Assembly (NCBI GenBank): GCA_041484665.1
Contig: JBGPIA010000002.1
Location: 192,001 to 256,000 of the forward strand
Direction: 5' to 3'
DNA: 64,000 nucleotides
Origin: Candidatus Krumholzibacteriia bacterium
Lineage (GTDB): Bacteria; Krumholzibacteriota; Krumholzibacteriia; JAJRXK01
A program made the position numbers and the translations under genes. The notes beneath the pieces were generated by a model. It saw only the letters and a program-made list of their open reading frames with translations, did no database searches and had not been told where the DNA came from. Position 1 is the first letter of the stretch, and every line of letters starts with the position of its first letter. Positions 35,742-62,130 of the stretch are shown here, piece by piece.

Positions 35742-37733
35742 TCAGTCGACGCCAATATACCCGAGGCTGCGTAGCCCCTCCAGATCCTGACGCGCCCTCC
35801 CCACGCGCGGCGTCCAGTCCGGCCGCTGCCCGTAGGTGGCGGGGCGGGGGAGCGCCCAAGCGCCGGTACGCTCGGCCGGTGGCCACGGCGCGTGCATCTC
35901 CCGCGACGGCGGAATCCCCAGGTCGGCCAGCAAGACCGAGACCAGCTCCCACATCGAGTCGGTGGAAGGCTCGAGCACTGCGGGTCCCGTAGCCCACGCC
36001 CACACCTCGCGTCCGGGCTCTCGCTCGGCGGATCCCACCAGCAACAGACGCCCCGCTGGCGCCGCGCGCGCCAGCGGCTGCAGCAGGGCGTCCAGATAGC
36101 GGATGTACAGATCGCGCAGCTGCACCGACCGGCGCCGCCCCTGCGGGTCGACCCCAGCGCTGCGCCCTGCAGAGCGCGCAAGCGCGTTCACACGACGGTC
36201 GAGGATGTCCAGCCCGTTGAGGTGGACCACAACGACGTCGCGCGAAGCGTGGCCGAGCGCCGCCTGCGCCAGTGCCACGTGGAGAGCGTCGGAGGAGGTC
36301 GCGTAGCGCCACGCCCCGGAGAGCGCCGCCGCCCCCGCATCGGCTCCAGGGGCGTCCAACGCCAGCAGCGAGTCGCCCGCCGCCGCGGCGGGCAGCTGGA
36401 GGCGCCGCTGCGCCGCCAACTCCAGCAGCGCAGCCGCGTCACGCATGCCGCCCAGGAGCTGGGCCGCCAGGTCGCGCGGGGCGGACAGCAGCGAGTCAGC
36501 GAGCGCGGCTGGATCGCCGTCCCACAGGCGCAGGAACCAGCGATCCGTCACCACCTCCAGCGGCGGGTGCTGAGCGGCCGGATAGGTCGCCCACCAGTTG
36601 ACGACCAGGACGCGGCGTCCAGCCCAGGTCGCGATCTCCCAGAACGGCGGCCGCAGCAGCTCCCGTTGGTCGGAGGCCTGCAAGCGGCCCAGGCCCACGC
36701 CCGGCAACAAGCGCTGCGAGACCGTCGACAGCACCGGATCCCGGAGCAGGCCCGACACCTCACCGCGGACGCCGACCGGCAGCGTGGCGGCCGCCCCCGA
36801 GAGGCCGTGGATGCGCGCCGGGAGACCGGTGGCGATCTCGTTCCAGAACGCGGTCGGCGCGCGCGCGGCCCGGTCGGCGCGCAGCGAGCGCGCCTGCGCC
36901 CCACACACGCCCAACAGCGATGCCGGCGCGTGCGCAGCGAGCTCCTGGACGTCGGACAGCGCGAGGCCGTCGATGGCCACGACCAGCAACGGCCCTGCGA
37001 TCGCGGCGGTGGGCGGCTTTGGCAGCTCGTCCAGGCGCGGCACGGGGCGCAGCTGCGTGTACGGTCCAAAGCCCAGCAGGACCAGGGCAACGCACAGCCC
37101 GGGCAGCCAGAGCAACCCTGCCGGCGCGCGCGGCTGCGGTGACTGCGCCGGCTCGCGCGCCACGCGCAGGCGCGCGGCGGCCACCATCACGGCCATCAGC
37201 TCCGCCAACCACGAGCCCACGGTCGCCGCCAGCGCCGCGAGCCCCACCAGCACCGCGGGCCACAGCGAGCGGGGGAGGCCTTGCAGCAGATGGCGGCCGA
37301 GCACGTCGGCCACGTACGCCGCGACCAGCAGCGCCGTCAGCAAGAGCGACGCGCGCACCAGGCGCGTGCCGCGTGCGTGGTCGCTCTGCGGCATCCTCAC
37401 GAACAGCGGCCAGGTCACCGCGCACACCAGCAACGCGCCGCCCAGGGCTACCACGGCCACCATCTGCAGCAGCAGCCAGCCCGCCTCGCCCGGCCGGTCG
37501 ATCAGCCCCGGGCTGGCCAACAGCGCGGCGAGCCACAGCAGGAGCCCCACGGCGCCTCCGCCCCCACCCCCGACCCAGGTGCCGACGGCGAGCGTGGAGC
37601 GCAGCGCGCCCCCGCGCCGCGGCATCCGCCGCGCGACGAACACCTCGGCCGGCGATTGCAGGTAGCCCAGCGCGCGCAGTTGGCGCAGGCCCTGCTCGAG
37701 ACGCTTGGGATCGCCGCCGCGCTCATCGCCCAT
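35742..37733 (-). CDS. Multi-TM membrane protein with degenerate alkaline-phosphatase-superfamily (phosphodiesterase-like) domain
   Basis: About 5 N-terminal TMs; VVAIDGL, WNEIATG..HG, VVNWWATYPA, C-terminal LRSLGYI; several catalytic residues missing. Confidence 0.7.
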   Translation of the reverse strand: MGDERGGDPKRLEQGLRQLRALGYLQSPAEVFVARRMPRRGGALRSTLAVGTWVGGGGGGAVGLLLWLAALLASPGLIDRPGEAGWLLLQMVAVVALGGALLVCAVTWPLFVRMPQSDHARGTRLVRASLLLTALLVAAYVADVLGRHLLQGLPRSLWPAVLVGLAALAATVGSWLAELMAVMVAAARLRVAREPAQSPQPRAPAGLLWLPGLCVALVLLGFGPYTQLRPVPRLDELPKPPTAAIAGPLLVVAIDGLALSDVQELAAHAPASLLGVCGAQARSLRADRAARAPTAFWNEIATGLPARIHGLSGAAATLPVGVRGEVSGLLRDPVLSTVSQRLLPGVGLGRLQASDQRELLRPPFWEIATWAGRRVLVVNWWATYPAAQHPPLEVVTDRWFLRLWDGDPAALADSLLSAPRDLAAQLLGGMRDAAALLELAAQRRLQLPAAAAGDSLLALDAPGADAGAAALSGAWRYATSSDALHVALAQAALGHASRDVVVVHLNGLDILDRRVNALARSAGRSAGVDPQGRRRSVQLRDLYIRYLDALLQPLARAAPAGRLLLVGSAEREPGREVWAWATGPAVLEPSTDSMWELVSVLLADLGIPPSREMHAPWPPAERTGAWALPRPATYGQRPDWTPRVGRARQDLEGLRSLGYIGVD

Positions 37734-37737
37734 CGGC

Positions 37738-38628
37738 TCAACTCCGGCGTGCGGCGAGGTAGTCGCACAGCGACCGCAGGTGCGCGCTGGCCGCCGGCAA
37801 CCGATCGAGCGCAGCACGCGCGGTGTCCAGCAACCGCCGCATGATCTCTTCGCTCTCGGCGTAACCCAGGCAGGCCACGAAGGTCGGCTTGCCGCGGTCC
37901 TGGCGCGCGTCCTTGCCCATCTCGGCGGCGTGCCCCGTGGCGTCGAGCAGGTCGTCCTTGATCTGGAAGGCCAGGCCCAGATTGCGCGCGTAGTGCGCGG
38001 CCAGCTCCTCCTCGCCCGCGCTGGCCTCGCCCAGGCGCGCGCCCAGCCGCGCGCACGCCACGAACAACGCTCCGGTCTTGTGACTGTGGATGTACTCCAG
38101 GCGCACCAGGTCGCGCTGCTGCGCGGGCAATCGCAGGTCCACGTGCTGTCCGCCGATCATGCCCCGCACGCCGACCGCGTCGGCCAGCAGCGCGGTGGCG
38201 CCCAGCCCGCCGTGGCCTGCGTCGAGGCCGCCCAGCAGCTCGAAGGCGAGCATGAGCTGGGCGTTGGCGGCCAGGATCGCCGTGTCGACACCGAACCGCA
38301 CGTGGCAGCACGGGCGTCCGCGGCGCGTGCGCGCGTCGTCCATGCTGGGCAGGTCGTCCAGGACGAGCGAAGAGGTGTGGATCAGCTCCGCGGCCATCGC
38401 CGCCGCCATCACCTCTGCGGGGCGCGGCCGGCCCACACTCTGCGCCCAGAGCTCCACCACCGCCGGACGCACGCGCTTGCCGCCGGCCAGCAGCGTGTAC
38501 TGCACCGCTTCCAGGAGCTCGGGCGTGTAGGCGTGCTCCAGGCGCGCGACTGCGGCCTGCAGCTGCGGCCCCAGGCGTTCGCCCAGACCGTGCAAGTAGG
38601 CCGACAGCGCCCCTGCCAGGTCAGCCAC
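37738..38628 (-). CDS. Second trans-prenyl diphosphate synthase (CrtE/GGPP synthase-like)
   Basis: GGKRVRP, HTSSLVLDDLPSMDD..RRG (Ser at -5 of FARM), GQHVD, KTGALF, FQIKDDLLD. Confidence 0.88.
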   Translation of the reverse strand: MADLAGALSAYLHGLGERLGPQLQAAVARLEHAYTPELLEAVQYTLLAGGKRVRPAVVELWAQSVGRPRPAEVMAAAMAAELIHTSSLVLDDLPSMDDARTRRGRPCCHVRFGVDTAILAANAQLMLAFELLGGLDAGHGGLGATALLADAVGVRGMIGGQHVDLRLPAQQRDLVRLEYIHSHKTGALFVACARLGARLGEASAGEEELAAHYARNLGLAFQIKDDLLDATGHAAEMGKDARQDRGKPTFVACLGYAESEEIMRRLLDTARAALDRLPAASAHLRSLCDYLAARRS

Positions 38629-39844
38629 GCTGGCCCTCCCCCTCGGACGCGAGCGACCGCAACAGCTGCGCGGTCTGCGCGACCATCCTCTCCCGCGTGA
38701 ACGCCGCCAACAAGCGCTCGTGTCCACGCCGGCCCATGGCGCGGGCCGCTTCCGGCGCGCCGAGCAGCCCGGCCAGCGCTTGCGCCATCGCCCCCGGATC
38801 GCCCGGGGGCACCAGCCGTCCGCTGACGCCTTCCTCGAGCATCTCGCGCAGCGAGCCGACGTCGGTCGCGACCACGGGCAGACACGCGGCCATGGCCTCA
38901 AGAACGCACAGCGGGAAGGTCTCCACCACCGGCCGCGACGCGAGCGCCAGCGCATCCAGGCAGGCCAGGATCGCCGGAACATCGCCGCGCTGCCCGAACC
39001 AGCGCACGCGCTCGCCGACCCCCAGCGCGCTGGCGTGCTCGCGCAGCTCGCCAGCCAGCGCCCCGTCCCCCACCACCGCCAGGTGCGGGGGAGTGGGCCC
39101 GCGCAACTGCGCCAGCGCGGCGAGCAACGAGCGGTGGTCCTTCTCCGGGCGCAGCGCCGCCACGATGCCGATCACGGGACGATCGGCGGGCAGACCGAGG
39201 TGTGCGCGGCGCCGGGCGCGCTCCTCGCCATGGAGCGGCGGTGAGAATGCCGCGGGATCGACTCCGTTGTGGATGACGACCAGACGGGCCGGGTCGACCC
39301 GTTCATGCTCGGCGAGGTAGCGCGCGTGCGTGTGGCTGACGGCGATGACGCGATCGCTCAGCGGCATGAGCAGCCGGTCGGCGCGCGATAGGCTGGGGCG
39401 CCCATCGGCGCGGCCGGTGCGGTGCACGGCGCAGACCTGAGCGCGAACGCCGGCCAGGCGCGCGGCCAACCGTCCATACAGCAGCGCATTGGAGTGGTCG
39501 AGCACGTAGACCACGTCGGCCGCGACGCGCCGCAGGTGGGCGCGCAGGGCCCAAAGCGCGCGTGGGTCGGTCCGCGCAGGGGCCAGCTCGCCGCGCAGCG
39601 CGACACCGCGCGCCTGCAGCGCCTCCCCCACCGGCCCGGGGGCGCGCAGGCAGCCCACGCCCACGTCGATGCCGTGGGCGGGCAGATCGCAGCACAGGGC
39701 CTCGACCACCCGCTCGGACCCGCCGATCACCAGGCTGTTGACGAGGAACTCGACTCGCAGCCGCTCCGGGGAGCGGGGAGTCAGCGCGGGGTCCCCACGC
39801 CGTTGAGGCGGTGCGCCGCGCCGCCTTCCCGGATCGATCGACAT
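38621..39844 (-). CDS. Glycosyltransferase family 4
   Basis: LVIGGSER, IHNGVD, LRPEKDH, ETFPLCVLEAMAA, ATDVG; true start uncertain and may be near 39784. Confidence 0.85.
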   Translation of the reverse strand: MSIDPGRRRGAPPQRRGDPALTPRSPERLRVEFLVNSLVIGGSERVVEALCCDLPAHGIDVGVGCLRAPGPVGEALQARGVALRGELAPARTDPRALWALRAHLRRVAADVVYVLDHSNALLYGRLAARLAGVRAQVCAVHRTGRADGRPSLSRADRLLMPLSDRVIAVSHTHARYLAEHERVDPARLVVIHNGVDPAAFSPPLHGEERARRRAHLGLPADRPVIGIVAALRPEKDHRSLLAALAQLRGPTPPHLAVVGDGALAGELREHASALGVGERVRWFGQRGDVPAILACLDALALASRPVVETFPLCVLEAMAACLPVVATDVGSLREMLEEGVSGRLVPPGDPGAMAQALAGLLGAPEAARAMGRRGHERLLAAFTRERMVAQTAQLLRSLASEGEGQRG

Positions 39845-40818
39845 GCCGCCTCGAGCACCTCCACCACCTCGAGCCCGCTCCGCCCATCGCTGGACGGCGA
39901 CTTCCCGTCGCGGATGCACTGGATGAAGTGCTCGGCCTCGTTCTTCAAGGGCTCGCTGTCGTCGATGCGGGGCAGGACGATGTCGCCGTACCGGTAGCTG
40001 AGCTGGAACTCGCCGAAGGTGTCGTAGTGCGGAAGTACGTTCACGCCCTTGTCGTAGACCCGCAGCTTCTCCACGTTGGAGACGTCGTCGTAGACGAGCA
40101 TCTTCTTGCTGCCCACCACCGTGAGCTTGCGGATCTTGTTGGGGTCCAGCCAACTCACGTGCAGGTGGGCGGTGACCTTCTCAGGATACTCCATGTGGAC
40201 GAAGGCCACATCCTCGATGCCCGGCTGGACGTACGCCGTGCCCAGGGCGTTGACCCGCACGGGCCCGTGTCCCAGCAGCCAGTTGATGATCGCCACGTCG
40301 TGCGGCGCGAGATCCCACACCACATTGACGTCCTCGCGGAACAGTCCGAGGTTCACCCGCGTGACGTGGATGTAGAAGATCTGCCCCAGCTCTCCCCGGT
40401 CGATCAGCTGCTTGATGTGGTGGATCCCGGAGTTGAACAGGAAGGTGTGGCCGACCATCAGGAAGCGCCGGTTGCGGTCGGCAGCGTCGATCATGCGGCG
40501 GCACTCGTCCACCGAGGAGGCCATGGGCTTCTCGACGAAAACGTGCTTGCCGGCATCCAGAGCCTTGCACGTCAGCTCGGAATGGGTGCACACCGGGGTG
40601 GCGATCACCACGGCCGCGATCTCGGGGTCCTCGAGAATGTCGGCGTAGCGCGTGCTCGTGCGCAGGCTCGGGTAGAGGTTGCGCATATGGGCCAGCCGCT
40701 CTTCGTTGAGGTCGACGGCCCATTTGGTCGCCGCTCCCGGAATCTGTGAGAAATTCCGGACGAGATTCGGGCCCCAGTACCCTACCCCAACGACCCCAAC
40801 CCGAATGGGAGCGCTCAC
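39781..40818 (-). CDS. Gfo/Idh/MocA oxidoreductase (WbpB-like sugar-nucleotide oxidase)
   Basis: GVGYWGPNL, IATP, VFVEKP, VGHTF, DLAPHD; GTG start after GGAGAGG. Confidence 0.9.
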   Translation of the reverse strand: MSAPIRVGVVGVGYWGPNLVRNFSQIPGAATKWAVDLNEERLAHMRNLYPSLRTSTRYADILEDPEIAAVVIATPVCTHSELTCKALDAGKHVFVEKPMASSVDECRRMIDAADRNRRFLMVGHTFLFNSGIHHIKQLIDRGELGQIFYIHVTRVNLGLFREDVNVVWDLAPHDVAIINWLLGHGPVRVNALGTAYVQPGIEDVAFVHMEYPEKVTAHLHVSWLDPNKIRKLTVVGSKKMLVYDDVSNVEKLRVYDKGVNVLPHYDTFGEFQLSYRYGDIVLPRIDDSEPLKNEAEHFIQCIRDGKSPSSDGRSGLEVVEVLEAACRSIREGGAAHRLNGVGTPR

Positions 40819-40867
40819 GTCTGCCTCTCCAGTGGCACTCGTGCCGGGCCCGCGCCCGGCACGAAGC

Positions 40868-41590
40868 TCAGTAGGCCCCTTCACCTCGCAGGAGAACGGG
40901 GAAGGTCTTCAGGATGATCTTGAGGTCCAGGGCCAGGCTCCAGTTGGCGATGTAGTGGAGGTCCAGCATCACCATCTCGTCGAAGGGAACCATGCTCCGG
41001 CCGCTGACCTGCCAGAGTCCGGTCAAACCCGGCTTGGCCTTCAAGCGATCCTTGTGCCACTCTTGGTAGTGCGCGAGCTCGTAGGCGATGGGCGGGCGCG
41101 GACCCACCAGGCTCATCTCGCCGCGCAGGACATTCCAGAACTGCGGCAGCTCGTCGAGGCTCGTCTTGCGCAGAAACGCCCCGAACAAGGTAACGCGCGG
41201 ATCGCGCACCATCTTGTAGGGCCGGCTGTGGTCGCCGTCCATGTGGCCGTTGATGAAACGCTGGGCGAAGTTCCGGTGCACGGCATCATCGCTGTTGTGC
41301 TGCATCGTGCGGAACTTGTAGAACACGAACGGCTTTCCGTCCTTCCCCAGGCGGATCTGCCGGAAGAAGACCGGACCGCGGCTCGTGATCTTCACCATCA
41401 GGGCGATCGCGGCGAGCACGGGGGCGCCGACCGTGTAGATCGTCAACGCGGCGGCGACATCGATGGCGCGCTTGAACGCGAGCTCGACCTGACTGTGGGT
41501 GGGGACGCCGATCCGAAGGGCAAACGTGTCGACAGCGTCCAGGGCTCGTTCGGTGGTGGCAAGGTTCAAGGCAGTCGCGTCTTCCTTCAT
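40868..41590 (-). CDS. Priming polyprenyl-phosphate sugar-1-phosphate transferase (bacterial sugar transferase family)
   Basis: [50 protein letters not shown]. Confidence 0.93.
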
Positions 41591-41721
41591 CTCTGGAGCC
41601 GTCCCTCAGCTGTGAACAACCTGGGTGTCTGGATGGGTTTAACGCCCTTCCACCTCGTCAGCTGAACCAGTCGCTATGTCGGACAACCTGCCTTTCTGCA
41701 GGAAAATCGCTCCACGCTCCC

Positions 41722-42834
41722 CTAACGATCCGCTGCCAACAGCACCTCGCAGACGTGGTCGACCATCTCGGGCTCCATCTCCGCGTACATTGGCAGCGAG
41801 ATGATGTTCGCGCAGATGACCTCGGCCACCGGGAACTGCCCCGGCGAGCCAAGGTGCGCGAAGGCCGGATGGAGGTGGATCGCCCGGGGATAGTGCTCTC
41901 CCCAGCCAATCCCGCTCTCGGTGAGCTGGGCCTTCACGCGCGGCGCCTCGGGATGATTCACGACGAACAGATGGTGGACGGGCTCGGCACCCTCCACGGC
42001 CTGGGGCCAGCGATAGCGGGATCCGGCGAGGAGGTCCCGATACCGGGCGGCGTGTTCGCGCCGCCGCGCGTTCCATCCGTCCAGGTGCGCCAGCTTGACC
42101 CCCAGGACGGCCGCCTGGAGGCTGTCCAGCCGCGCCGTGGTCCCGACGAGGCTGTGGACATTCTTCTCCCGCTGCCCGTGATGGCGCAGGGCCGCCACCT
42201 TGGCCGCGATCTCCGGATCGTCGGTCACCAACGCTCCCGCGTCCCCGAACGCTCCCAGGTTCTTGCCCGGGTAGAAGCTGAACGCTGCGGCCTTGCTCCC
42301 GCTGCCGATACGCCGGCCGTGGAGGCGCGCGCCGTGGGCCTGCGCGGCGTCCTCCAACAGCAGGATCCCGTGCCGCCGCGCCAGAGCGCGCAGCGCCACG
42401 AGGTCGGCGGGAAAACCGTACAGGTGTACCGCCATGACGGCCGCCGTCTTGCGCGTGATGCGCGCCTCGACCGCCGCCGCGTCCATCAGCCAGGTGCGGG
42501 GGTCCACGTCCGCTAGCACGGGAGTGGCGCCCGCCAGCGCGATCGCCTCCACCGTGGCCACGAACGTGTTGGGAACCGTGATGACCTCATCCCCGGGGCC
42601 GATCCCGCACGCCCGTAGCGCCAGCTGCAGCGCGTCGATGCCCGAGCTCACGCCCATGCACTGCCGCGCTTCGCAGAATTCGGCGAAGCGGCTCTCGAAG
42701 GCGGTGGTGGCGGGACCCAGGATGAATGCGTTGCGATCGATGACGGCCCGGATGGCTGCATCGATCTGCGCACGGAGAGGCTCGTTCTGGGCGGCGAGAT
42801 CCAGAAACGGGATCAGCGGGGCTTGTGTCTGCAT
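41722..42834 (-). CDS. DegT/DnrJ/EryC1/StrS PLP-dependent sugar aminotransferase (WbpE-like)
   Basis: GPGDEVIT, VHLYG, EDAAQAHG, FSFYPGKNLGAFGDAG, RLDSLQAA. Confidence 0.93.
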   Translation of the reverse strand: MQTQAPLIPFLDLAAQNEPLRAQIDAAIRAVIDRNAFILGPATTAFESRFAEFCEARQCMGVSSGIDALQLALRACGIGPGDEVITVPNTFVATVEAIALAGATPVLADVDPRTWLMDAAAVEARITRKTAAVMAVHLYGFPADLVALRALARRHGILLLEDAAQAHGARLHGRRIGSGSKAAAFSFYPGKNLGAFGDAGALVTDDPEIAAKVAALRHHGQREKNVHSLVGTTARLDSLQAAVLGVKLAHLDGWNARRREHAARYRDLLAGSRYRWPQAVEGAEPVHHLFVVNHPEAPRVKAQLTESGIGWGEHYPRAIHLHPAFAHLGSPGQFPVAEVICANIISLPMYAEMEPEMVDHVCEVLLAADR

Positions 42835-42843
42835 GACCGAGCG

Positions 42844-43182: not shown

Positions 43183-44079
43183 ATGCGCCTGCTGATCACC
43201 GGAGCCCAGGGGATGATGGGGCGCGACCTGCGCGCGCTGGCCGAGGCCGCCGGGCACGACGCGTGGCCGACCGACGTCGCGCGACTGGCGCGCGATCCGC
43301 AGGATCGCCTCGACGTCACCGATCACGCGGCGCTGGAGCACGCCTTCGAGGCGTTCCACCCCGACGCCGTGCTCCATCTGGCGGCGATGACCAACGTGGA
43401 TGACTGCGAGCTTAACCCCGAGCAGGCCTGGCGGGTGAACGCCGTGGGGACGCAGAACGTGGCGCTGCACTGCCGGCAGCGCGCTCTGCCCCTGGTCTAC
43501 ATCTCCACCGGCAGTGTGTTCGACGGCGAGAAGCCCACCCCCTATCACGAGTTCGACGTGCCCAATCCCCAAAGCATCTACAGCCGCAGCAAGTGGCAGG
43601 GGGAGCTCATCGTCCGTGAGCTGTGGCCCCAGCACTACATCGTGCGCGCCGGCTGGATGTTCGGCGGCGGGCCAGAGGACAAGAAGTTCGTGGCCAAGAT
43701 GGTCGACCAGGCCCGGGCGAAGCCCGTGTTACGCGCCGTAGACGACAAGAGCGGGTCGCCGACCTATACGCGCGACATCAGCGCCCGCTGCCTGGAGCTG
43801 CTGGCCACCGGGCGCTTCGGTACCTACCACGCGGCCAACGAAGGGTGCTGCACGCGTTACGAGATGGCGCAGGCGATCGTGGAGTACGCGCGCATCGCCG
43901 GCTGCCGCGTGGACCCGTGCGGCTCCGCGGAGTTCCCGCTGCCCGCCCCGCGTCCGCGGCTGGAGGCGTTGGAGGGGCTGCACGCCCGCCTGATCGGGCT
44001 GCCGCCCATGCGGGGATGGCGGGAAGCGCTGGCGGACTACATCCAGACCGAGCTGCTTCGCGAACCGAGGGGCGCGTGA
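43183..44079 (+). CDS. rmlD: dTDP-4-dehydrorhamnose reductase family protein
   Basis: ITGAQGMMG, HLAAMTNVDDCE, YISTGSVFDG, YSRSK, SGSPTY, PAPRP. Confidence 0.85.
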   Translation: MRLLITGAQGMMGRDLRALAEAAGHDAWPTDVARLARDPQDRLDVTDHAALEHAFEAFHPDAVLHLAAMTNVDDCELNPEQAWRVNAVGTQNVALHCRQRALPLVYISTGSVFDGEKPTPYHEFDVPNPQSIYSRSKWQGELIVRELWPQHYIVRAGWMFGGGPEDKKFVAKMVDQARAKPVLRAVDDKSGSPTYTRDISARCLELLATGRFGTYHAANEGCCTRYEMAQAIVEYARIAGCRVDPCGSAEFPLPAPRPRLEALEGLHARLIGLPPMRGWREALADYIQTELLREPRGA

Positions 44080-44112: not shown

Positions 44113-44634
44113 CTACTTCTGCTCTTCGGTCCGGATGGGCTTGAGCGTCTTGTAGAACTCGGCCGGGGTCATGGAGAGGATCGGGCCGCTGCACTTCGCA
44201 ACCGGCTTCGCTGGGTTGCCCTGCACCATGGTCAGCGGCGGAACGGAGCGCGTAACGACACTGCCGGCCATCACTACTGCGCCGTACCCGATCGTCACAT
44301 TCGGCAGGATGATAGCGCCCGGTCCGATGAAGGCCTCGTCCTCGATGCGCACCGAGATGGCGTCCTCCGGGTGGCCCTTGACGTCGGCCTTGATTGCCCC
44401 CTGGAAGTGGGCCAGGATCATCGACCGGATCCCGACGTCCACACCGTTGCCAATGGAGACCAGGAAGGGACGCGACGTCTCGATCAGCGCGTCGGTGCCG
44501 ATGAAGACGCGCTCGCCGATCTTCACCCCGCGCCGGCGGTGCATCCACACACGAACGGTCCTGGCGCCCGGAGAATACCGCACCAGGATCTGCAACACGC
44601 GATTCTTGAGCGCCCATAGCGCGCCACGTCTCAT
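44113..44634 (-). CDS. Left-handed beta-helix (hexapeptide repeat) acyltransferase
   Basis: VKIGERVFIG, SIGNGVDVG, ILAH, RIEDEAFIGPGAIILPNVTIGYGAVVMAGSVVT, GNPAK. Confidence 0.9.
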   Translation of the reverse strand: MRRGALWALKNRVLQILVRYSPGARTVRVWMHRRRGVKIGERVFIGTDALIETSRPFLVSIGNGVDVGIRSMILAHFQGAIKADVKGHPEDAISVRIEDEAFIGPGAIILPNVTIGYGAVVMAGSVVTRSVPPLTMVQGNPAKPVAKCSGPILSMTPAEFYKTLKPIRTEEQK

Positions 44635-44682
44635 TGGCCCATCCGGTCCTGGTTCCCGTTTAATGCCACCGATGCGACCACG

Positions 44683-44970
44683 TTACGCGCCGCCGCTGGT
44701 CGCCGCCCGGCTCTTTCCCTCAACGTAACGACAGAGGGGGCCGAGGATCGTCAGCTCCTCGGCGTCCAGATCCTCGAAATCGATCGCGAGTCCAAACCGA
44801 TGCTCGATGGCCGAGATCATCTCAAGGATCCCGAGCGAATCGATGACCCCTTCGGTGAGGAGATCGAAATCGTCGGGCACTTGCGCGGGCTCGAGACCCT
44901 TCGCGGCGAGTGAGCTCGCGAATCTCTCCAGCAAGAGGGCTCGGACCGCTTCCGCCGTGATGACACTCAT
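44683..44970 (-). CDS. Acyl/aminoacyl carrier protein (DltC-like)
   Basis: FDLLTEGVIDSLGILE phosphopantetheine Ser motif, IEHRFG; ATGA overlap with the adenylation enzyme. Confidence 0.88.
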   Translation of the reverse strand: MSVITAEAVRALLLERFASSLAAKGLEPAQVPDDFDLLTEGVIDSLGILEMISAIEHRFGLAIDFEDLDAEELTILGPLCRYVEGKSRAATSGGA

Positions 44971-46592
44971 GCCATCTCCTCCAACAGCTTGAACAGGGCG
45001 AACTGGTCGATCTTCCCGTGGTGCGTCAGCGGCAGCTCGGGAAGGAAGTGGAGCCGACGCGGGACCATGTAGTCCGGGAGGCGCGCGGCGAGCTTCCGAC
45101 GCAGCAGCTCCGGGTCGGCCCCGACGGTGCCCAGGAACGCCTCCACCCCACCCGCGGCCCCGCTGGCGCCGCGCGGCCAGCCGACGGCCAGCACGGAGTC
45201 GACGCCCGACGCCTCGCGGAGGGCGGCTTCCACTTCGCCGAGTTCGACGCGGTGCCCGTGGATCTGCAATTGGCGATCCAACCGCCCGAGATAGAGGATC
45301 GGGCCGTGGTCGTGCGGCCTGCGCACCCGATCACCCGTCCGATAGAAGATGACATCCTCCCCGGGCAAGGTGATGAACGACGCCGCCGTCCGCTCGGGGT
45401 CCCGCCAGTAGCCGAGGGTGACCTGGGGCCCGGACAGGAGCAGCTCGCCGGACTCACCCGCGGCGACCTCGCGCAGACCCTCATCGACAACCCGCGTAGT
45501 CATCCCGGCGTTGGGGTATCCGATCGGAACGACCCCCTGTTCGCATTCCTCCGGCGATCGCTCCGGATCCCAACGATAGCGCAGGCAGGTGCAGAGCACC
45601 TCGGTCGGGCCGTAGAGATTCTCCACGGCGGAATTGCTGGCTGCCTGCGCCCATGACCGCGCCACCTCCAGCGGCAGCGCCTCGCCTCCGAAGAGGCTGT
45701 GCCGCAGCGTTGGATAGCGATTCGGCTTGAGAATGCCCAGGCGCCGCATGAACACGCCGGTGGAGGGCACCGAGAACCAGATGGTGATGCGCGAGTCCCG
45801 GATGAACTTTCCGGGCTTGATCAGCTCCTTCTGGGTCGGGACGCACAAGCAAGCTCCGCGCTCCCACCCCACCCACAGGTCGAAGATCGAGCCGTCGAAC
45901 GTCAATTCGAACGTCTGCGAGAATCGGTCCTGCTCCGTGACGGCGTAGTGGTCGACGACCGCGTCGATGTAGGCGAGGGCGTTGCGGTGCGCCGCCATCA
46001 CCGCTTTGGGGATGCCGGTGCTCCCCGAGGTGAAGATGAGATAGGCCACCGCGTTCGCTTCGACCGGCACCGGGGCCCAATCGCGCGGGACGTCGAGGTC
46101 CGCGCGACCCAGGATCCGGTGCGTGGGCCACTCACCCGCGAGCTCGGCCACGTCCTCCTGCTCCGGCAGCAGCAGGACCATCGGCTCCTTGAGTCGAGGG
46201 ATCAGCGAGCGCAGATGGGGCACCGATTCCGGATCGACCACCATGCAGCGCGCCCCGGAGCGCTCGAGCATCATCAGCGTGCGCTCCGGCGGCAGCAGGC
46301 GGCTGAGCGACACGTAGCCGTGCCCACGTAGGAGAGCGCCGAGGATACCCGTGTAGGCCGTGGGCGTGCGATAGGCGAGGACCGCGGTCAGCGGGGCACT
46401 ACCCGGCGACGGGTGGACCCGGTCGAGCGTCGCCGCGAGCGAGAACGCACGCTCGTACATTTGGCGGTAACTAAGCGTCACACCGGCCACCTGAAGGGCC
46501 GGACGATCAGGAAAGCGAGCGGCGGAGCGAAGGAAGCCGGAGCGAAGGGTTCGCGTGCTCTCAACCATCGCGCTCGACGTCTCCGACGTCAT
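44967..46592 (-). CDS. Stand-alone amino acid adenylation domain (DltA-like carrier protein ligase)
   Basis: NRPS A motifs YLIFTSGSTGIPK (A3), FDGS (A4), NLYGPTE (A5), GELLLSGPQVTLGY (A6), YRTGD (A7), GRLD..HRVELGEVE (A8), LPDYMVP (A9), GKID (A10); start ATG 46592 or 46568. Confidence 0.92.
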   Translation of the reverse strand: MTSETSSAMVESTRTLRSGFLRSAARFPDRPALQVAGVTLSYRQMYERAFSLAATLDRVHPSPGSAPLTAVLAYRTPTAYTGILGALLRGHGYVSLSRLLPPERTLMMLERSGARCMVVDPESVPHLRSLIPRLKEPMVLLLPEQEDVAELAGEWPTHRILGRADLDVPRDWAPVPVEANAVAYLIFTSGSTGIPKAVMAAHRNALAYIDAVVDHYAVTEQDRFSQTFELTFDGSIFDLWVGWERGACLCVPTQKELIKPGKFIRDSRITIWFSVPSTGVFMRRLGILKPNRYPTLRHSLFGGEALPLEVARSWAQAASNSAVENLYGPTEVLCTCLRYRWDPERSPEECEQGVVPIGYPNAGMTTRVVDEGLREVAAGESGELLLSGPQVTLGYWRDPERTAASFITLPGEDVIFYRTGDRVRRPHDHGPILYLGRLDRQLQIHGHRVELGEVEAALREASGVDSVLAVGWPRGASGAAGGVEAFLGTVGADPELLRRKLAARLPDYMVPRRLHFLPELPLTHHGKIDQFALFKLLEEMA

Positions 46593-46892: not shown

Positions 46893-48179
46893 TCATCGGT
46901 TGGAGTAGAGCTGGTCGCGCCGCATGCGCGCCACGGTGGCCAGAAAACGCGGCACGAACGCCGCCAGCCGCAGGCCATTGCGCGGATGCCGCAGGTAGGC
47001 CGCCACGTCGAAGTACAGCGGGTGCATCACGGGCACAAACACCCCCGCGACCTCTTCGGCGCGGTGCAGCTGCTCGATGAACGCCGCAGCCAGCTCCTCC
47101 GCGAAGTCCGGGCCCAACGCCACGCTGATGTCGGCGAAGTGCTGCCCGATGCTCAGCGTCCGGCGCAGCGCGCCGTCGCCGGGCAAGTGCAATGGATGGT
47201 AGTACCGGTTGCGGTACATGGTGTCGTAGCGGAAGCCCGCCTGCTCCACCGCGCGCCACGTATTGGGTGTGGTGTTGGTGCGCAGCTCGCCGCCGTGCAT
47301 GCAGATGCCGGATGCCTCGGCGCCGACCAGCTCTTCCAAGAGCGCCTTCTCCCCGGCCGCAGCGCGCAGCTCGCTGCCGAACCGCCGCTCTGCCGAAGTC
47401 ACGAACTCACCGTGCAGCGCCAGCTCGTGGCCGCCTACCACTCGGGCATACGCCCGGAGCTCCGCCGCGCCGTAGAAGTACCCCAGCGGGCGCAGGTAGG
47501 CCGTGCTGCGGACGCCGTAGCGGTCCTCCAGCGCGTGGATCCCCGCCATGTTCTGGATCGCCGCGTCCACGTCGTAGCGCACCGAAAGCGCCACCGCGTA
47601 GGGTCTGCCACCGCGCTGCGGCAACGGCCACAGGCGCAGGTCCGGCAGCCCGCAGCGGCGGTGCCCCTCGGCGAGGAGCCCGCGCATGCGCGACAGCGGC
47701 TCCTCGTCGAAGCGCTGGTGCCGCGTGGCGCTTTCGCGCAGGGCGGTCAGCAGCGGGTCCAGACGCGCGGCGGGCAGCACTGGCGTGGCGCCCGGCGCCG
47801 CGCACCGCACGTGGCCGTAGCCGAGGTGGCCGAGGATTTCGCGCAGCAGCGGCTCGTCGGCCACGCGCGGATCGTAGGAGGGCGCGGCCGCCGACGGCCG
47901 TGCCACCGGGAGCTCGAAGGGCGGGACGAGCACGCGGGCCGAGTCGACCTCCACGGCGGCCTCCGCCAGCGCGCATTCGACGGCCAGACGCCCGCCATCG
48001 ATCCGCCGCAGTTGCACGCTCGCCTGCTGGCGTTGCTCCCACCAGCGGGCGACCTCGCGCTGGGATACGGCCCAGACATTCCCGTGGACGCGCACGTGCT
48101 CCAGCAGCGCTGTGTAGGCCGGCCGGTCCTTCATGAGGGTATGGCGCCGGATCGCGCGCTGGATCAAGCCGAGGTTCAT
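46893..48179 (-). CDS. Polysaccharide deacetylase-like protein (CE4/WbmS-like)
   Basis: SVRYDVD, GVRSTAY, ELALHG, GICMH, GFRYDT, VMHP motifs; start may be 48206. Confidence 0.65.
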   Translation of the reverse strand: MNLGLIQRAIRRHTLMKDRPAYTALLEHVRVHGNVWAVSQREVARWWEQRQQASVQLRRIDGGRLAVECALAEAAVEVDSARVLVPPFELPVARPSAAAPSYDPRVADEPLLREILGHLGYGHVRCAAPGATPVLPAARLDPLLTALRESATRHQRFDEEPLSRMRGLLAEGHRRCGLPDLRLWPLPQRGGRPYAVALSVRYDVDAAIQNMAGIHALEDRYGVRSTAYLRPLGYFYGAAELRAYARVVGGHELALHGEFVTSAERRFGSELRAAAGEKALLEELVGAEASGICMHGGELRTNTTPNTWRAVEQAGFRYDTMYRNRYYHPLHLPGDGALRRTLSIGQHFADISVALGPDFAEELAAAFIEQLHRAEEVAGVFVPVMHPLYFDVAAYLRHPRNGLRLAAFVPRFLATVARMRRDQLYSNR

Positions 48180-48222: not shown

Positions 48223-49449
48223 TCATGGCTCCAGTGCTCCCGAGGATGTCAGGAAATCCGCGATGGCCGTCGCCGCAAGCGCGTGACCGTCGCGACTCCA
48301 GTGGCCGTCCTCATCGTTCTGCGCGCAGCCGTGCAGCGCGATGTCACCCCGGGCGGCTCGCGCGCGGAAGATCGGCACCAGATCCAGGTCGAGCGCCCCC
48401 TCACCCAACGCCACCGATCCCAGGTACCCGTGTACACGATCCAGGTCGAGGCTGGGGTGCTGCCGCCGCGCGCGCTCCATGGCGCGCGGCTGGACCTGCA
48501 TGCGGGTGGTCCCCTCGACGAGTACGAAGCGGGCCCCATCGGAGCGGACCGCGGCATCGAGCCGCCGCAGCACCGCCTGGGTGAGGGTGAGGGCGTCCCG
48601 CCAGGGGCGCGGAGGGTCGGGCAGCCACAAGTTGGCCTCGTCGGCGGGGGCGAGTGCGCATGCAGCCGCGCCGGCGTCATCGCCCGCGGCCACGCCGCCG
48701 TCGCCCGCGCTCGATGACGCGCGCTGCGCGCGCGGTGCAGCGAGCTCGTTGCCCGCGCGCAGCGTCAGCGAGACCAGGACCGACGCACGCTTGGCCGGCG
48801 TCAGCAGCGTGCGCACGTGGTACCCGCGGCTTTCGCGGAAGCTCTCGTCCAGCGCGAGCGCGCTGCCCTCCAGACGGAAGTAGGGTCCGTAGGCCATGGG
48901 CAGTGCCAGGGCCCGTGAGTTGTCCGCGACGTCGTTGGGGATGAACAACAGCAGCACCAGGTCGGGATGGTAGCGGCGCCCCTCGTGCTCGTAGAAGAGG
49001 CATTCGGCCGTGGTCCCCATCCCGGACCGCCCGGCGTTGACGACCTCGTAGCTGCGCCCGTCGCGGCGGGCGTTGAGCAGCGCCTCCAGCCGCTTGGTCC
49101 ACGTCTGCTCGAGCGGGAGCTGGAAACCCTCGGTGTACGAGTCGCCCAGCGCCAGGATGCGGAAGGTGCCCGGAGCGCGGGCATAGTCGATGTCGCGGTC
49201 GCGCAGCCCATGGGCGTTGATGCGGCCGCTGGACCCCCATCCCGGACAGGGTTCGGCGGCGGCGAAGCGATAGACGGCACCGGGCACGTACGACCAGCCC
49301 AGCACCGGATCCGGTCGCGTCCAGCTGGGCACGCTGACTCCGGCCACACGCAGCCCGATCTCCAGCAGCAAGCACAGCACGAGCAGCGTGGACAACGAAA
49401 GCGCGAGTCGGGTTCCCATCCCGCGCCCGCGTGCAGGCGCCGGCGTCAT
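48223..49449 (-). CDS. Membrane-anchored SGNH/GDSL hydrolase/acyltransferase (AlgX/AlgJ/DltD-like fold)
   Basis: N-terminal TM, ALGDSYT (block I), NAGRSG (II), PND (III), DGHW (V); ATGA overlap. Confidence 0.85.
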   Translation of the reverse strand: MTPAPARGRGMGTRLALSLSTLLVLCLLLEIGLRVAGVSVPSWTRPDPVLGWSYVPGAVYRFAAAEPCPGWGSSGRINAHGLRDRDIDYARAPGTFRILALGDSYTEGFQLPLEQTWTKRLEALLNARRDGRSYEVVNAGRSGMGTTAECLFYEHEGRRYHPDLVLLLFIPNDVADNSRALALPMAYGPYFRLEGSALALDESFRESRGYHVRTLLTPAKRASVLVSLTLRAGNELAAPRAQRASSSAGDGGVAAGDDAGAAACALAPADEANLWLPDPPRPWRDALTLTQAVLRRLDAAVRSDGARFVLVEGTTRMQVQPRAMERARRQHPSLDLDRVHGYLGSVALGEGALDLDLVPIFRARAARGDIALHGCAQNDEDGHWSRDGHALAATAIADFLTSSGALEP

Positions 49450-50673: not shown

Positions 50674-51804
50674 CTAGCGGTTGTAGAACTCCGGGAACTG
50701 ACCGTAGTGGCGGCTCTCCGCGGGCTGGGCGACACCCTTCTCGCGGTGCTCCAAGTACGACCGGCGTTCCACGACCTTGTTGTCGTGGTGGACGTGTCCA
50801 TAGTCGACGTAGCGCTGGAACGGGATGGGTCGCTTGAAGATGACGCGCAGCTTGTTGGAGACCACCCAAGCCAGCGGCTTGGCGCGCGGCAACGAAGCGA
50901 AGCGCTCATTGCGCATGGCCGTCTTGGCGGAGGCGACCATCCAGCAGTTTTGCGTGCAGGCGGCGACCTCCGCGCGGGCCGCCACCGCCTTCTCGCCGCG
51001 CATGATCTCCTCCCAGCTCTGCTTGGACAGGTTGCCCATGAGCAGGTCGGGGCGGACGTTGCAGGCGTACACGTCGCTCCACGGATCGACGAACGCGAAC
51101 ATCGTGCCGGCGGTGCACGGGATCAGGCGGTCGTGGCCGAGGATCTTGGCGATCAGGCCCAGGTTCAGGTAGCCACGGAACCAGTTCTTGATGGACCAGG
51201 ATTGCATCATCTCCGTGACCAGGTCCTCAACACGCCGCGCAACGCGTACGCGGTCGTACATGTAGTTGTCGTCCTTGTGGAACTGGAAGCCGTTGTGCAA
51301 CGCCGAGGTCGCCAGCTCCACGCCCACGCGGCGGCTGAGGCGGTACATCTCCACGATCTGGTCGACGTTCTCGTCCTGGAAGGTCGTGGCGAACCCCAGG
51401 TCGGTACCCCGCAGCGCCACCAGACGCTCCATCGCCGCCATCTTCGTCTTGAACCCGTCCTTCTCACCGCGGATGCGGTCGTTGGTCTCCTCGAGCCCCT
51501 CGATGCTGATGCGGATCTTCACGTTGGGGTACTTGAGCAGGACCGGCTCGAGCTTGTCGACGTGCAGCCCGTTGGTGGAGATCTCGAGTGTGTGCGTCTT
51601 GGGATACAGCAGATCCACGATCTCCATCAGGTCGCGGCGCAGGGTAGGCTCACCCCCGGTGATGTTCAGGTGATCGAATCCGCCGGGCAGCTTGCTCAGC
51701 GTCTCCAGGCTCACCTCGAACCGCGGATTGGTCGGGTTCTTCCAGATGTAGCACATGGAGCAGGCGGAGTCGCACCGGTAGGTCAGGATCACCGACAAGT
51801 CCAC
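50674..51804 (-). CDS. Radical SAM protein with C-terminal SPASM/twitch-like domain
   Basis: CDSACSMC CxxxCxxC, ITGGEP, ISTNG, SIEG, CTAG...VYACN..MGNL, CTQNC; GTG start after GGAG. Confidence 0.9.
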   Translation of the reverse strand: MDLSVILTYRCDSACSMCYIWKNPTNPRFEVSLETLSKLPGGFDHLNITGGEPTLRRDLMEIVDLLYPKTHTLEISTNGLHVDKLEPVLLKYPNVKIRISIEGLEETNDRIRGEKDGFKTKMAAMERLVALRGTDLGFATTFQDENVDQIVEMYRLSRRVGVELATSALHNGFQFHKDDNYMYDRVRVARRVEDLVTEMMQSWSIKNWFRGYLNLGLIAKILGHDRLIPCTAGTMFAFVDPWSDVYACNVRPDLLMGNLSKQSWEEIMRGEKAVAARAEVAACTQNCWMVASAKTAMRNERFASLPRAKPLAWVVSNKLRVIFKRPIPFQRYVDYGHVHHDNKVVERRSYLEHREKGVAQPAESRHYGQFPEFYNR

Positions 51805-51959
51805 GGCATCTCCGTCTCTAGCTCCAAGGGGCACGGGTCCCCGGGGGCGTCGGGTGTCTCGCTCATGTCGGCTGGAGTCGCGGACTCGGCGTGCTCCGGG
51901 CGCCTCCGAGGGTGGAGTGCCGTGGGACCGGAGCGCCGCTCACCGCTCGTACGCACTTC

Positions 51960-52092: not shown

Positions 52093-53205
52093 TCAACGGC
52101 TGGAGAGCGAGCGGAACAGCACCTCGAACTGGTCGGCGATCCCCTCCCAATCGTAGTGGGCGCGCACGCGCTCCAGCGCCGCCTCACCCAGGGCGCACAG
52201 GCGCGGCTCGTCCTCGAGAACCTCGGCCAGTAGGCTGCGCAGGGCCGCCACGTCGCCCGGCGGGAACGCCAGCCCGGCCTGGGCGATCGTGGCCCGGTTC
52301 TCAGGGATGCCGTTCACGATCACCGGCCGACCCAACGCCATAGCCGTGAGCAGCACCGGGCTGGTGCCCTCCACGTCGCTGGGCTGCACGTAGACCCGGC
52401 AGTGCTGCATCAGCTGCTTGAAGCCCTCTCCGAACACGTAGCCCGTGAACACCGTGCGGGGGTCGGCGGCGCGCTTGAGCCCGTCGACGTACGCGCGGTC
52501 GTACGGATCGTCGCCGACGATCACGAGCTTGCGCCGCGTCGGCAGCCCGCGGAACGCCTCCATGAGGAACGGCACGCCCTTTTCCGGCACCAGTCGCCCG
52601 ACGAACAGGATGTAGTCGCGGGGCAGGAGCCCGAAGCGCTCCAACGCGTCGCGTGCCTCGACGCGCTCGATGTTGGCGCCGTACGGGATGCAGGCCGTGT
52701 CGCGCCCCATCTCCCGCACGTAGAACTCGTGCGCGACCTCGGTGTCGGTGACGATGGCGTCGCTGACGCGTACCCCGAAGCGCGCCGAGCGCTGCAGGTA
52801 CCAGCGGGCGAAGCGTCCCCACTTGCGCCGCTCCCAGGCCTTGCCGTCGACCCACAGCACCGTGCGCCGCCCGAACAGATGCAGCCAGGGGATCACCAGC
52901 GAGGTCCCCGAGCCCGACAGCAGCACCACCGGCGCGGGCTCGCGCAGCACGACATGCATCGCCGAGAGCACGATGTGCACGAGCGTGTCGAGGTTCTTGC
53001 GGCGCAGCGATGGCAGGTGATGCAGGCGCAGACCGTGGTAGTGCGCCGGGCGCGGCGGCGGCGTGTTGTAGGTACGGCAGTAGACCACGACGTCGTGCCC
53101 GCGCGCGGCCAGCCGGCGTCCGATCTCGTCGGTCGCCGTCTCCCGGCCGCCGTAGAGCGGCGGCAGCCCTCGGGTCCCCAGGATGGCGATCCTCAGTCGT
53201 TCCAC
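52093..53205 (-). CDS. Glycosyltransferase family 4 (DUF1972-type N-terminus)
   Basis: IAILGTRGLPPLYGGRET, DGKAWERRKW, IPYGA, VGRLVPEK, EGTSPVLLTAMA. Confidence 0.88.
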   Translation of the reverse strand: MERLRIAILGTRGLPPLYGGRETATDEIGRRLAARGHDVVVYCRTYNTPPPRPAHYHGLRLHHLPSLRRKNLDTLVHIVLSAMHVVLREPAPVVLLSGSGTSLVIPWLHLFGRRTVLWVDGKAWERRKWGRFARWYLQRSARFGVRVSDAIVTDTEVAHEFYVREMGRDTACIPYGANIERVEARDALERFGLLPRDYILFVGRLVPEKGVPFLMEAFRGLPTRRKLVIVGDDPYDRAYVDGLKRAADPRTVFTGYVFGEGFKQLMQHCRVYVQPSDVEGTSPVLLTAMALGRPVIVNGIPENRATIAQAGLAFPPGDVAALRSLLAEVLEDEPRLCALGEAALERVRAHYDWEGIADQFEVLFRSLSSR

Positions 53206-53325
53206 GGCCCGCGGAGGGTAGCCGACACGCTGGACACGCGCCAGCGGGCAGTTCCCGCGGCGCTGCCGCATGCGCGGCCGCGGCGGCTGTGGTACGCTCG
53301 CTGCTTCGGACAGGAGGTCAGGACC

Positions 53326-61090: not shown

Positions 61091-62130
61091 CAGTCTGCTG
61101 CCCCCTGGACGCCAGCCAGGAGCCTCGCCACCGTGGCATCCCACCCGAAGCGCTGCACGAGCGCGCGCGTGGCGCAGCGCTGAGCCTCGACGGCCGCCAC
61201 CGCGCCGGCCAAGGGCGCCGTGTCCTGCAGAAATACCAGCCCGTCGCCCTCCAGGAAATGGTCGCCCAGTGCCCCGAAGCGGGTTGTCACCACGCGCAGC
61301 CCGCACGCCATCGCCTCCAGGACCGAGAGCGGGAACGCGATGCTGCCCTCGTCGTCGCGCACCGGGAAGAGGTAGACGTCGGCCGCTTGGTAGAGCTGCT
61401 CGACCTGTGGGAAGAACTCCCGGCGCAGGTCCACGCCCGCGCTGCGCAGCTGTTCCACCAGCGCCGGGTCGACGGAGGTGGCCGTGCTGGCCGCCATCAC
61501 CACGTGCGTGGACGGCAGGCGCGCCGCCTCGCACAGGCGCTCCAGGCCGCGGTGCGCGGACAGATGCCCGACGTGGAGCACCACCCGCCGGTCCTGTGGC
61601 CAGCCGAGCATCTGGCGCAGCCGATGTCGGGCGTCGGATCCGACGGGCGCGAAGCGCTGCAGGTCCACACCAGCATCCACGAGAGAGACCGCGAACCCCA
61701 GCCGCCGATACTGCTCCAGGCTGGCCCGCGACAGCACGACCAGGCGGGCCGGACGCACCCAGGGCAGTAGCCACCGCGCAAGGCGGCCGTAGCCGCGGTG
61801 CTGCAGGCTGATCAGCGCCACCTTGGCCCGCGGCAGCGCGCGCTCCAGGCGCTTGCAGCGCAGCAGGGCATTGAACGTGGCGCACGCCGACGGGACGTAC
61901 AGTGCGAGCTCGGGCGCCAGCGTCGCAAGCTCGTGGCGCAGTGCTGGGGTCACGAGCCCCTTGCCCATGGCCACGCGCACCGCGGGCAGTCCGCTGGGCG
62001 CCTGCCCTCTCTCGTACAGGGCGATGAGCTGGTGGTCGCGGGCCAAGCGCTCCACCAGGTGGGTCACGAACTTGAGCAGCCCCTCATCGGCACGCTCCGA
62101 CCATCGTTCCGAGATGACGGCGATCCTCAC
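61090..62130 (-). CDS. Glycosyltransferase family 4
   Basis: AGVDLQRFAP, LHVGHL, YQAADVYLFP, PLSVLEAMACG; GTGA overlap. Confidence 0.85.
   Translation of the reverse strand: MRIAVISERWSERADEGLLKFVTHLVERLARDHQLIALYERGQAPSGLPAVRVAMGKGLVTPALRHELATLAPELALYVPSACATFNALLRCKRLERALPRAKVALISLQHRGYGRLARWLLPWVRPARLVVLSRASLEQYRRLGFAVSLVDAGVDLQRFAPVGSDARHRLRQMLGWPQDRRVVLHVGHLSAHRGLERLCEAARLPSTHVVMAASTATSVDPALVEQLRSAGVDLRREFFPQVEQLYQAADVYLFPVRDDEGSIAFPLSVLEAMACGLRVVTTRFGALGDHFLEGDGLVFLQDTAPLAGAVAAVEAQRCATRALVQRFGWDATVARLLAGVQGAAD

Follow-up and report, generated by a model that had tools for sequence, protein, structure and literature searches.

A candidate three-gene module for carrier-fed acylation of surface glycans in a Candidatus Krumholzibacteriia bacterium

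Introduction

To our knowledge, the amino-acid and glyceroyl substituents of bacterial surface glycans often have no assigned transferase. A glycan gene cluster of Candidatus Krumholzibacteriia bacterium raises the question of how such a group might be put in place. The stretch analysed here (64,000 nucleotides, C2:192001-256000 of a 5.45 Mb genome that is 93.65% complete; hereafter the window) contains, one after another, genes for a stand-alone amino-acid adenylation (A) enzyme, a dedicated carrier protein, and a hexapeptide (left-handed beta-helix, LbH) acyltransferase. An earlier note, made from the sequence alone, had proposed that the LbH enzyme uses the aminoacyl carrier as donor to acylate an amino sugar made by the nearby Gfo/DegT pair. 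We find that the module is real and conserved and is probably a variant of carrier-fed envelope acylation, whose interest lies mainly in a swap of the loading enzyme and in fusions in which the same LbH is the terminal domain. Our preferred reading, to which we assign a probability of about 0.55, is that the three proteins would form a cytoplasmic thiotemplated module, in which an amino acid is loaded on the carrier and moved by the LbH protein to a surface-glycan intermediate.

Conservation of the Module and Replacement of Its Loader

The stop codon of the A gene overlaps the carrier start in an ATGA (44967-44970), with GGAGG preceding the carrier start, and 48 bases separate the carrier and LbH genes (Table 1). 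The A gene may start at 46592 or at an alternative ATG at 46568. Open reading frames (ORFs) and Pfam matches bear out the arrangement described in the earlier note, i.e., a complete A enzyme (with its SLFGGE motif) overlapping a carrier and followed by an LbH gene.

The comparison set consisted of 208 genomes of the same phylum, which are kin, hence no statistical test is given. At E <= 1e-40 the A enzyme has matches in 35 of them, and its nine best non-self matches (E <= 1.5e-85) all have a carrier and the same LbH within ~2 kb (9/9). The same nine genomes supply the nine best non-self matches of the LbH protein, which is matched in 23 of the 208 at E <= 1e-20. Among these A-type relatives, a GNAT gene is inserted in G124, the A gene lies on the opposite strand in G062, and the G066 locus is cut at a contig end. 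Genomes of one genus have either all three genes or none of them at a shared site, which lies beside a gene encoding a CE4-fold protein (discussed below). In G070, the module's A gene is divided between two frames (L018/L150, G070:C5:199571-201197), reflecting either an assembly error or decay.

The next six LbH matches (G025, G033, G036, G037, G040, and G054) belong to LbH-FkbH-carrier-CE4 operons, with TIGR01686 over its cut-off in all five scanned and the G037 operon divided between two contig ends. FkbH proteins load glycerate onto carriers and can replace A domains (PMC8949500; this and the other papers cited by PMC number are drawn on from their accessible parts). The loader is therefore swapped from A to FkbH, while the carrier and LbH persist. 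We defined an LbH subfamily by its C-terminal extension, a helix, which is found in 18 relatives (19 genomes including that of the window); a carrier and a loader adjoin the LbH gene in 15 of the 18. None of these partners is present at the four LbH matches without the C-terminal helix. The A family is a general loader; the link to carriers belongs to the LbH subfamily.

Outside the 208 genomes, 80 metagenome loci were collected with an A alignment, and six of these hold the core A family. Three (L040, L043, and L048) have a carrier and this LbH, with L040 and L048 additionally holding FkbH and GNAT genes. A genome-contig scan with a single A protein as query returned one distant locus, viral contigs scanned with the LbH alignment gave zero matches, and a plasmid search found only two Methanosarcina LbH proteins (37% identity, without a carrier).

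Fusion of the Same LbH to Carrier Domains

A search for longer proteins with the window LbH gave 59 matches at E <= 1e-15 among 825 candidates (49-61% identity). By hand count from the Pfam column, 55 of the 59 carry the carrier domain PF00550, in architectures of the A-T-LbH, C-T-LbH, and PKS-LbH types (C, condensation; T, carrier; PKS, polyketide synthase); 40 have an adenylation part, nine a condensation domain, and two a PKS AT, and LbH is the C-terminal domain in 58/59. The loaders include FadD7/oxalate-ligase-like A domains, A domains of the nonribosomal peptide synthetase (NRPS) type, and a KS-AT-KR module. In a quick tree of 49 rows, including 20 of the 59 fusions, the fused LbH domains cluster with the window protein and separately from the YvoF-like proteins that lack the extension, with weakly supported inner branches (SH-aLRT 83-86). 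Among the fusions, P0385, P0415 and relatives comprise FadD7/oxalate-ligase-like A-T-LbH proteins of ~790 residues and C-T-LbH proteins of ~777 residues without an A domain. The fusions are the strongest evidence that the LbH protein would act on carrier-bound groups, whichever direction the transfer takes.

The charges of the two small proteins are consistent with such a role. The carrier is acidic (pI 4.25, net charge -10), and its Ser45 in GVIDSL is invariant across 14 aligned homologues. The LbH protein is strongly basic (pI 10.4, net +11), whereas the WbpD-like and QdtC-like enzymes of the same genome are near neutral (0 and +2, respectively). Its structural model (pLDDT 92.9) shows a short beta-helix with two cationic helices at the N terminus and, at the C terminus, the single helix that marks the carrier-linked subfamily. 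The N-terminal helix has a moderate amphipathic character (moment up to 0.69), and the basic helices may interact with the carrier, with the membrane, or with both. An alignment of 40 homologues shows no variation at His76, Arg12, Arg28, His32, Arg35, or Arg70; the His motif is kept in 120/120 near homologues and in 57/59 fused ones, and His76 is two residues off the 3srt histidine in a pairwise alignment. The best fold matches are N- and O-acetyltransferases, which are tied at Z 13-14.5 (8vr6, Z 14.5 with a root-mean-square deviation of 2.4 over 120 residues; QdtC, Z 14.4).

We suggest from the gene linkage, the loader swap, and the fusions that LbH acts on carrier-bound acyl groups, most likely as an off-loading transferase. 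Several observations weigh against this reading. The compared genomes are all kin, supplied by a single phylum, and three of the 18 subfamily members (G047, G053, and G058) are accompanied by the CE4 gene but by no adjoining carrier or loader. Only three of the six metagenome core-A loci have this LbH; the others have a carrier with a generic LbH (L042), a divergently placed cassette with a membrane-bound O-acyltransferase (MBOAT; L047), or nothing (L041). More distant A members partner an AAC(3)-type acyltransferase (L049 and L143) or a NeuD-type LbH near DegT (L044), and the GNAT inserted in G124, L040, and L048 could be the transferase there. The fused A domains come from families other than that of the window (A2 profile <= 233 bits), and the fusions are known here as protein sequences. 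The usual CoA-site motif GSVVT..VPP..GNPA is retained in LbH, which makes use of acetyl-CoA possible.

The AAC(3)-type loci (L143:11018-15562 and L049:9968-12603, the acyltransferase being carrier-fused in L049) combine A, carrier, and acyltransferase beside surface-carbohydrate genes, and appear to follow the same logic with a different transferase fold. L145:7935-10790, in a polysaccharide cluster of a Leisingera plasmid, encodes a 951-residue A-T protein with an unassigned C-terminal part.

A Possible Tailoring Role for LbH, and the CE4-Fold Neighbour

The retained CoA-site motif brings in an alternative, which we consider unlikely though deserving of attention: LbH may N- or O-acetylate the carrier-bound unit from acetyl-CoA, with another enzyme (the GNAT, the CE4-fold protein, or a product of the glycosyltransferase cluster) making the transfer to the glycan. 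Gene linkage and fusions fit this equally well, and N-acetylated amino-acid amides are found on bacterial glycans. Candidates for the second enzyme are the three GNAT genes mentioned above and the CE4 gene, which lies beside 15 of the 18 LbH-subfamily loci; however, the three-gene unit has no further transferase that is conserved along with it. The position of LbH in the fusions, last in nearly all of them and even after C-T and PKS modules, is the place of a release domain, which argues for off-loading rather than tailoring.

The CE4 gene occurs in 20 of the 208 genomes, 16 of which have the LbH. It is present without the module in four genomes (G063, G064, G069, and G072), and is absent from three of the nine A-type relatives (G024, G065, and G124) and from L040 and L048, which counts against it as the second enzyme and led us to reject it as an obligatory part of the module. 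The protein has a CE4/NodB-type fold (Foldseek E 6.6e-7 to 3rxz; Z 13-14.5 to PplD, WbmS, PuuE, and ArnD), with the Asp/His metal motif residues D203, D205, H256, H295, and H386 invariant in the 12 compared. It could free an amine for re-acylation, and it is better linked to the module than is Gfo/DegT. The family is small (25 representatives at E <= 1e-30), and the first 90 residues of the protein correspond to the C-terminal region of other deacetylase-like proteins, which may reflect a circular permutation.

Comparison with Known Carrier-Fed Systems

On our tests, the module belongs to none of the Dlt, Alm, VinM-type, Pls, or WbpD/QdtC families. LpxA and LpxD, which act in lipid A synthesis, are LbH trimers with an acyl-carrier thioester as donor, using the housekeeping carrier protein and hydroxy fatty acids; their folds score lower against the window LbH (Z 9-10 against 14.5 for the best match). 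AlmG, of the Vibrio cholerae AlmEFG system, is an LpxL-type transferase. As is proposed for the module, AlmEFG and DltABCD use a free-standing A enzyme and a carrier to attach a small amino acid to a polymer of the cell envelope (PMC13721041, PMC11253843). Dlt transfer is performed by the MBOAT DltB with DltX and DltD, whereas the module has LbH, and its A enzyme has Gly at both pocket positions (see below). Matches to the Dlt families are below cut-off (NF003417, 220 vs 476; TIGR01734, 211 vs 560; NF003464, 24 vs 68).

The C domains of Pls/PosA, the epsilon-poly-L-lysine synthetase, are acetyltransferase-like. With such terminal domains, and with A-T lacking a condensation or thioesterase domain (PMC9617413), this enzyme resembles the module, although the match is weak (TIGR02353, 49 bits vs a cut-off of 423). 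Pls/PosA is membrane-bound, has three tandem domains and makes a homopolymer, whereas the window has three separate soluble genes. VinM differs in that it itself forms an amide on a beta-aminoacyl carrier in polyketide pathways (PMC11253843, PMC11284099); no second loader or PKS was found among the scanned window ORFs.

The likeness to YvoF and the maltose and galactoside O-acetyltransferases lies in a short LbH with a histidine where the loop leaves the beta-helix (His76 here). The window protein is below the cut-offs of their profiles (NF058585, 62 vs 300, covering most of LbH; NF007499, 43 vs 314), and differs in its extra C-terminal helix and its tie to carriers; YvoF is a membrane-associated O-acetyltransferase (PMC9179154). 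With WbpD, QdtC, and PglD it shares the left-handed beta-helix fold of the model, but neither profile membership (TIGR03570, 62 vs 161) nor aminotransferase linkage, as Gfo/DegT has another cognate LbH.

Carrier genes in glycan islands are already known (PMC4875605). In Flavobacterium psychrophilum, the PglD homologue WfpG is predicted to accept an acyl group from the carrier WfpD (PMC6519341), which is likewise a path from a glycan-cluster carrier to a hexapeptide-type transferase and likewise only predicted. WfpC-G differs in having a fatty-acid-type donor made via KS/KR and a PglD-type N-acyltransferase acting on a UDP amino sugar; the window module has an amino-acid A enzyme and an LbH subfamily without the PglD N-terminal domain. 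By analogy, the module may be said to resemble Dlt/Alm in loading, and LpxA/LpxD or the predicted WfpD/WfpG in transfer.

MBOAT Genes Outside the Window

Neither a condensation nor an MBOAT family was matched among the 58 window ORFs scanned, in agreement with the earlier note, and DltD had no match in profile scans of the window ORFs. The note had named an MBOAT just outside the window, co-occurring with A and carrier where LbH does not, as what would overturn the LbH proposal. An MBOAT does lie nearby: the sole PF03062 match of the genome (C2:262670-264166) lies ~7 kb past the window end and ~26 kb from the module, in the same glycan cluster and flanked by SGNH-like genes. The A enzyme and carrier might then feed this MBOAT in a Dlt-like manner with SGNH partners, LbH being an unrelated acetyl-CoA O-acetyltransferase. 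An SGNH gene also stands two genes upstream of A, an MBOAT is near A in L047, and the genome has a second A-carrier pair beside an MBOAT-SGNH fusion. Distribution largely refutes this possibility, which we regard as very improbable. No PF03062 match was found in 11 of the 15 module-bearing relatives (some 90-96% complete, several 73-84%), and in the remaining four the match is on a contig other than that of the module. PF03062 misses the MBOAT-SGNH fusion type in genome searches, and that type brings its own A and carrier. MBOAT does not follow the module, and carrier-LbH fusions exist; MBOAT was therefore rejected as the partner of the carrier in favour of LbH, as the note had held. The window SGNH was rejected as well, having no close homologue in the fetched loci and no co-conservation with the module.

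In the region C2:260319-265233 (L001), this MBOAT is of the AlgI/PatA type, between two SGNH-like genes, and probably performs ordinary O-acetylation. The second A-carrier pair (C1:171958-178052; L003, L008) lies beside a 943-residue MBOAT-SGNH fusion and an acyl-CoA dehydrogenase, and is kept in several relatives. Homologues of this C1-type A accompany the MBOAT-SGNH fusion (L024, L027, L031, L032, L034, and L036), and those of the window type accompany a carrier and LbH.

The Gfo/DegT Sugar as a Proposed Acceptor

The earlier note had LbH N-aminoacylating the nucleotide amino sugar that Gfo and DegT, encoded nearby, would produce; this acceptor did not hold up, and we now consider it improbable. 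The Gfo/DegT block adjoins the module here and is 41 kb away on the same contig in G026, and the amino-sugar N-acyltransferases 8vr6 and QdtC are among the top folds, tied with O-acetyltransferases. In the window, the block and the module are in separate transcription units, because a convergent RmlD gene stands between them, and the 5-20 kb of sequence retrieved at each of the nine A-type relatives contained no DegT. Of the expected co-conservation of A, carrier, and LbH next to DegT/Gfo, the three-gene unit stands and the DegT linkage does not.

The Gfo/DegT product was rejected because of its distribution. Gfo orthologues are present in 183 of the 208 genomes (122/125 good-quality ones), compared with 19 for the LbH subfamily, and six of the nine other genomes in the family of the window genome have the block without this LbH. 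Among the 30 best Gfo loci, a QdtC-type LbH directly follows Gfo in 20/20 from other families, including the module-bearing G033, G054, and G070. None follows it in the 10/10 loci from the window genome's own family, which favours the proposal; however, the window genome carries a WbpD-like gene on C1 and, on C27, an orthologue of the QdtC-type enzyme. With a QdtC-type LbH behind Gfo elsewhere and its orthologue on C27 here, the Gfo/DegT sugar is served by an acetyltransferase of its own. Given the presence of Gfo in 183/208 genomes, the DegT-phosphoglycosyl transferase-Gfo(-QdtC-type LbH) block appears to be a core glycan primer pathway of the phylum.

The Amino Acid Loaded by the A Enzyme

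The A enzyme retains the A10 lysine (HGK), and its nearest solved structures are 8k4r (which we take to be VinM), 6akd (IdnL7), and 4oxi (AlmE). Its pocket code, DGFFLGLCTK, was found in 0/119 close homologues, 61 of which have DLFFLCLIAK, with Leu and Cys as in AlmE/DltA. These two residues confine AlmE and DltA to Gly or D-Ala (PMC11253843). In the window enzyme, both glycine-pocket positions (AlmE Leu248 and Cys316), kept in most homologues, are Gly, including Gly302 at the equivalent of DltA Cys269, which selects D-Ala. This Gly/Gly pocket is unusual, and its motif would give no restriction to D-Ala or Gly, supporting the suggestion in the earlier note that the substrate may not be D-Ala.

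The pocket is identical to that of IdnL7, whose substrates are Gly, L-Ala, and L-Ser (PMC11253843, PMC11284099), at 7/10 positions; of the VinM/IdnL7 pocket, Asp216 and Thr318 are kept, and Cys217 and Ala285 are replaced by Gly. Retention of Asp233 makes an alpha-amino acid a likely substrate, probably an L-amino acid of small or medium size, although the code does not single one out. Pocket codes of the phylum relatives vary widely (e.g., DGFFTGGCMK, DGIFLGLVEK, and DAVHLGLVMK), which suggests that different lineages load different amino acids.

Proposed Mechanism

The sequences and models show the gene linkage, the loader swap, the fusions, the fold, and the motifs; the amino acid, the acceptor, and the direction of transfer we infer as follows. 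The A enzyme would adenylate the amino acid and load it onto the Ser45-phosphopantetheine of the carrier, as expected from its family; the genome has two phosphopantetheinyl transferase genes and three carrier matches. An LbH trimer would dock the acidic carrier onto its basic surface, in the manner of LpxA and LpxD. With His76 as base, it may then hand the aminoacyl group over to a sugar intermediate at the cytoplasmic face, for which a lipid-linked repeat unit is the most likely candidate. The acceptor atom might be a hydroxyl, as suggested by the YvoF/maltose-type O-acyltransferases among the nearest named profiles, or an amine released by the CE4-fold neighbour, in something other than the Gfo/DegT product. 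The same LbH subfamily would serve FkbH, acyl-CoA-ligase-like A, AT/PKS, and C domains, either free-standing or fused.

Instead of a glycan, the product could be a small molecule, or the acceptor a lipid or protein, the location in a glycan cluster being incidental. C-A-T-LbH and PKS-LbH fusions resemble small-molecule assembly lines, the nearest solved A domains are from macrolactam pathways, YvoF acetylates lipids (PMC9179154), and a luciferase-like monooxygenase is upstream in L043. Every larger A-type or FkbH-type locus examined sits among flippase, glycosyltransferase, Wzy, or AsnB genes, and we hold this explanation to be quite improbable.

A broader reading of the off-loading role is possible and is offered tentatively. 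The LbH subfamily may be an unrecognised thiotemplate chain-release domain, free or terminal, which unloads any carrier-held acyl group (an amino acid, glycerate, an oxalate-type acid, or an NRPS/PKS product, from A-T, C-T, C-A-T, or PKS hosts) onto a sugar, and which in this phylum, together with the CE4-fold protein, swaps N-acetyl for a new acyl group.

Genomic Surroundings

On the minus strand, the module comes last in a long series of genes for glycosyltransferases, AsnB, SGNH, and related proteins, and its transcription unit is bounded by the convergent RmlD gene (Table 1). Within the cluster, a radical SAM/SPASM gene (50674-51834) has a 68% orthologue near the FkbH-type module of G025 (L161), and two AsnB-type amidotransferases (52402-55200, +; 62127-63944, -) are candidates for uronamide formation. 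A protein of ~660 residues (35742-37817) has membrane segments, and its two ends bear LR(A/S)LGY motifs; it has no Pfam/NCBIfam match.

Table 1. Genes of the module and its neighbours (window positions).
Feature	Position	Strand	Remarks
Stand-alone amino-acid adenylation (A) enzyme	44967-46592	-	541 aa; PF00501 (E 8.5e-65) and PF13193; carrier loader
Dedicated acidic carrier protein	44683-44970	-	95 aa; PF00550 over cut-off; GVIDSLG
Hexapeptide (LbH) acyltransferase	44113-44634	-	173 aa; PF00132/PF14602
CE4/NodB-fold deacetylase-like protein	46893-48179	-	No Pfam match; frequent, non-obligatory neighbour of the module in the phylum
SGNH/GDSL hydrolase	48223-49449	-	N-terminal hydrophobic segment; neighbour only
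RmlD-like reductase	43183-44079	+	Convergent with the LbH gene; ends the transcription unit of the module
DegT	41722-42837	-	Core block of the phylum (39781-42837)
Phosphoglycosyl transferase	40868-41590	-	Core block of the phylum
Gfo oxidoreductase	39781-40815	-	Core block of the phylum

Implications

Carrier-fed glycan acylation has been known or predicted before; what appears to be new is the delimited LbH subfamily, with its exchangeable loaders and its fusions as a terminal domain. The literature searched, with most subscription papers outside reach, contained no description of an A-carrier-LbH or A-T-LbH system, of this LbH subfamily, or of the fusions. As a small soluble set of three proteins with swappable loaders, the module makes the question directly testable in vitro, and it is a possible tool for placing chosen acyl groups onto polysaccharides. 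If our reading is true, a "generic acetyltransferase" encoded next to or after a carrier may have a donor other than acetyl-CoA, and the hexapeptide fold would join the known ways of unloading NRPS and PKS carriers.

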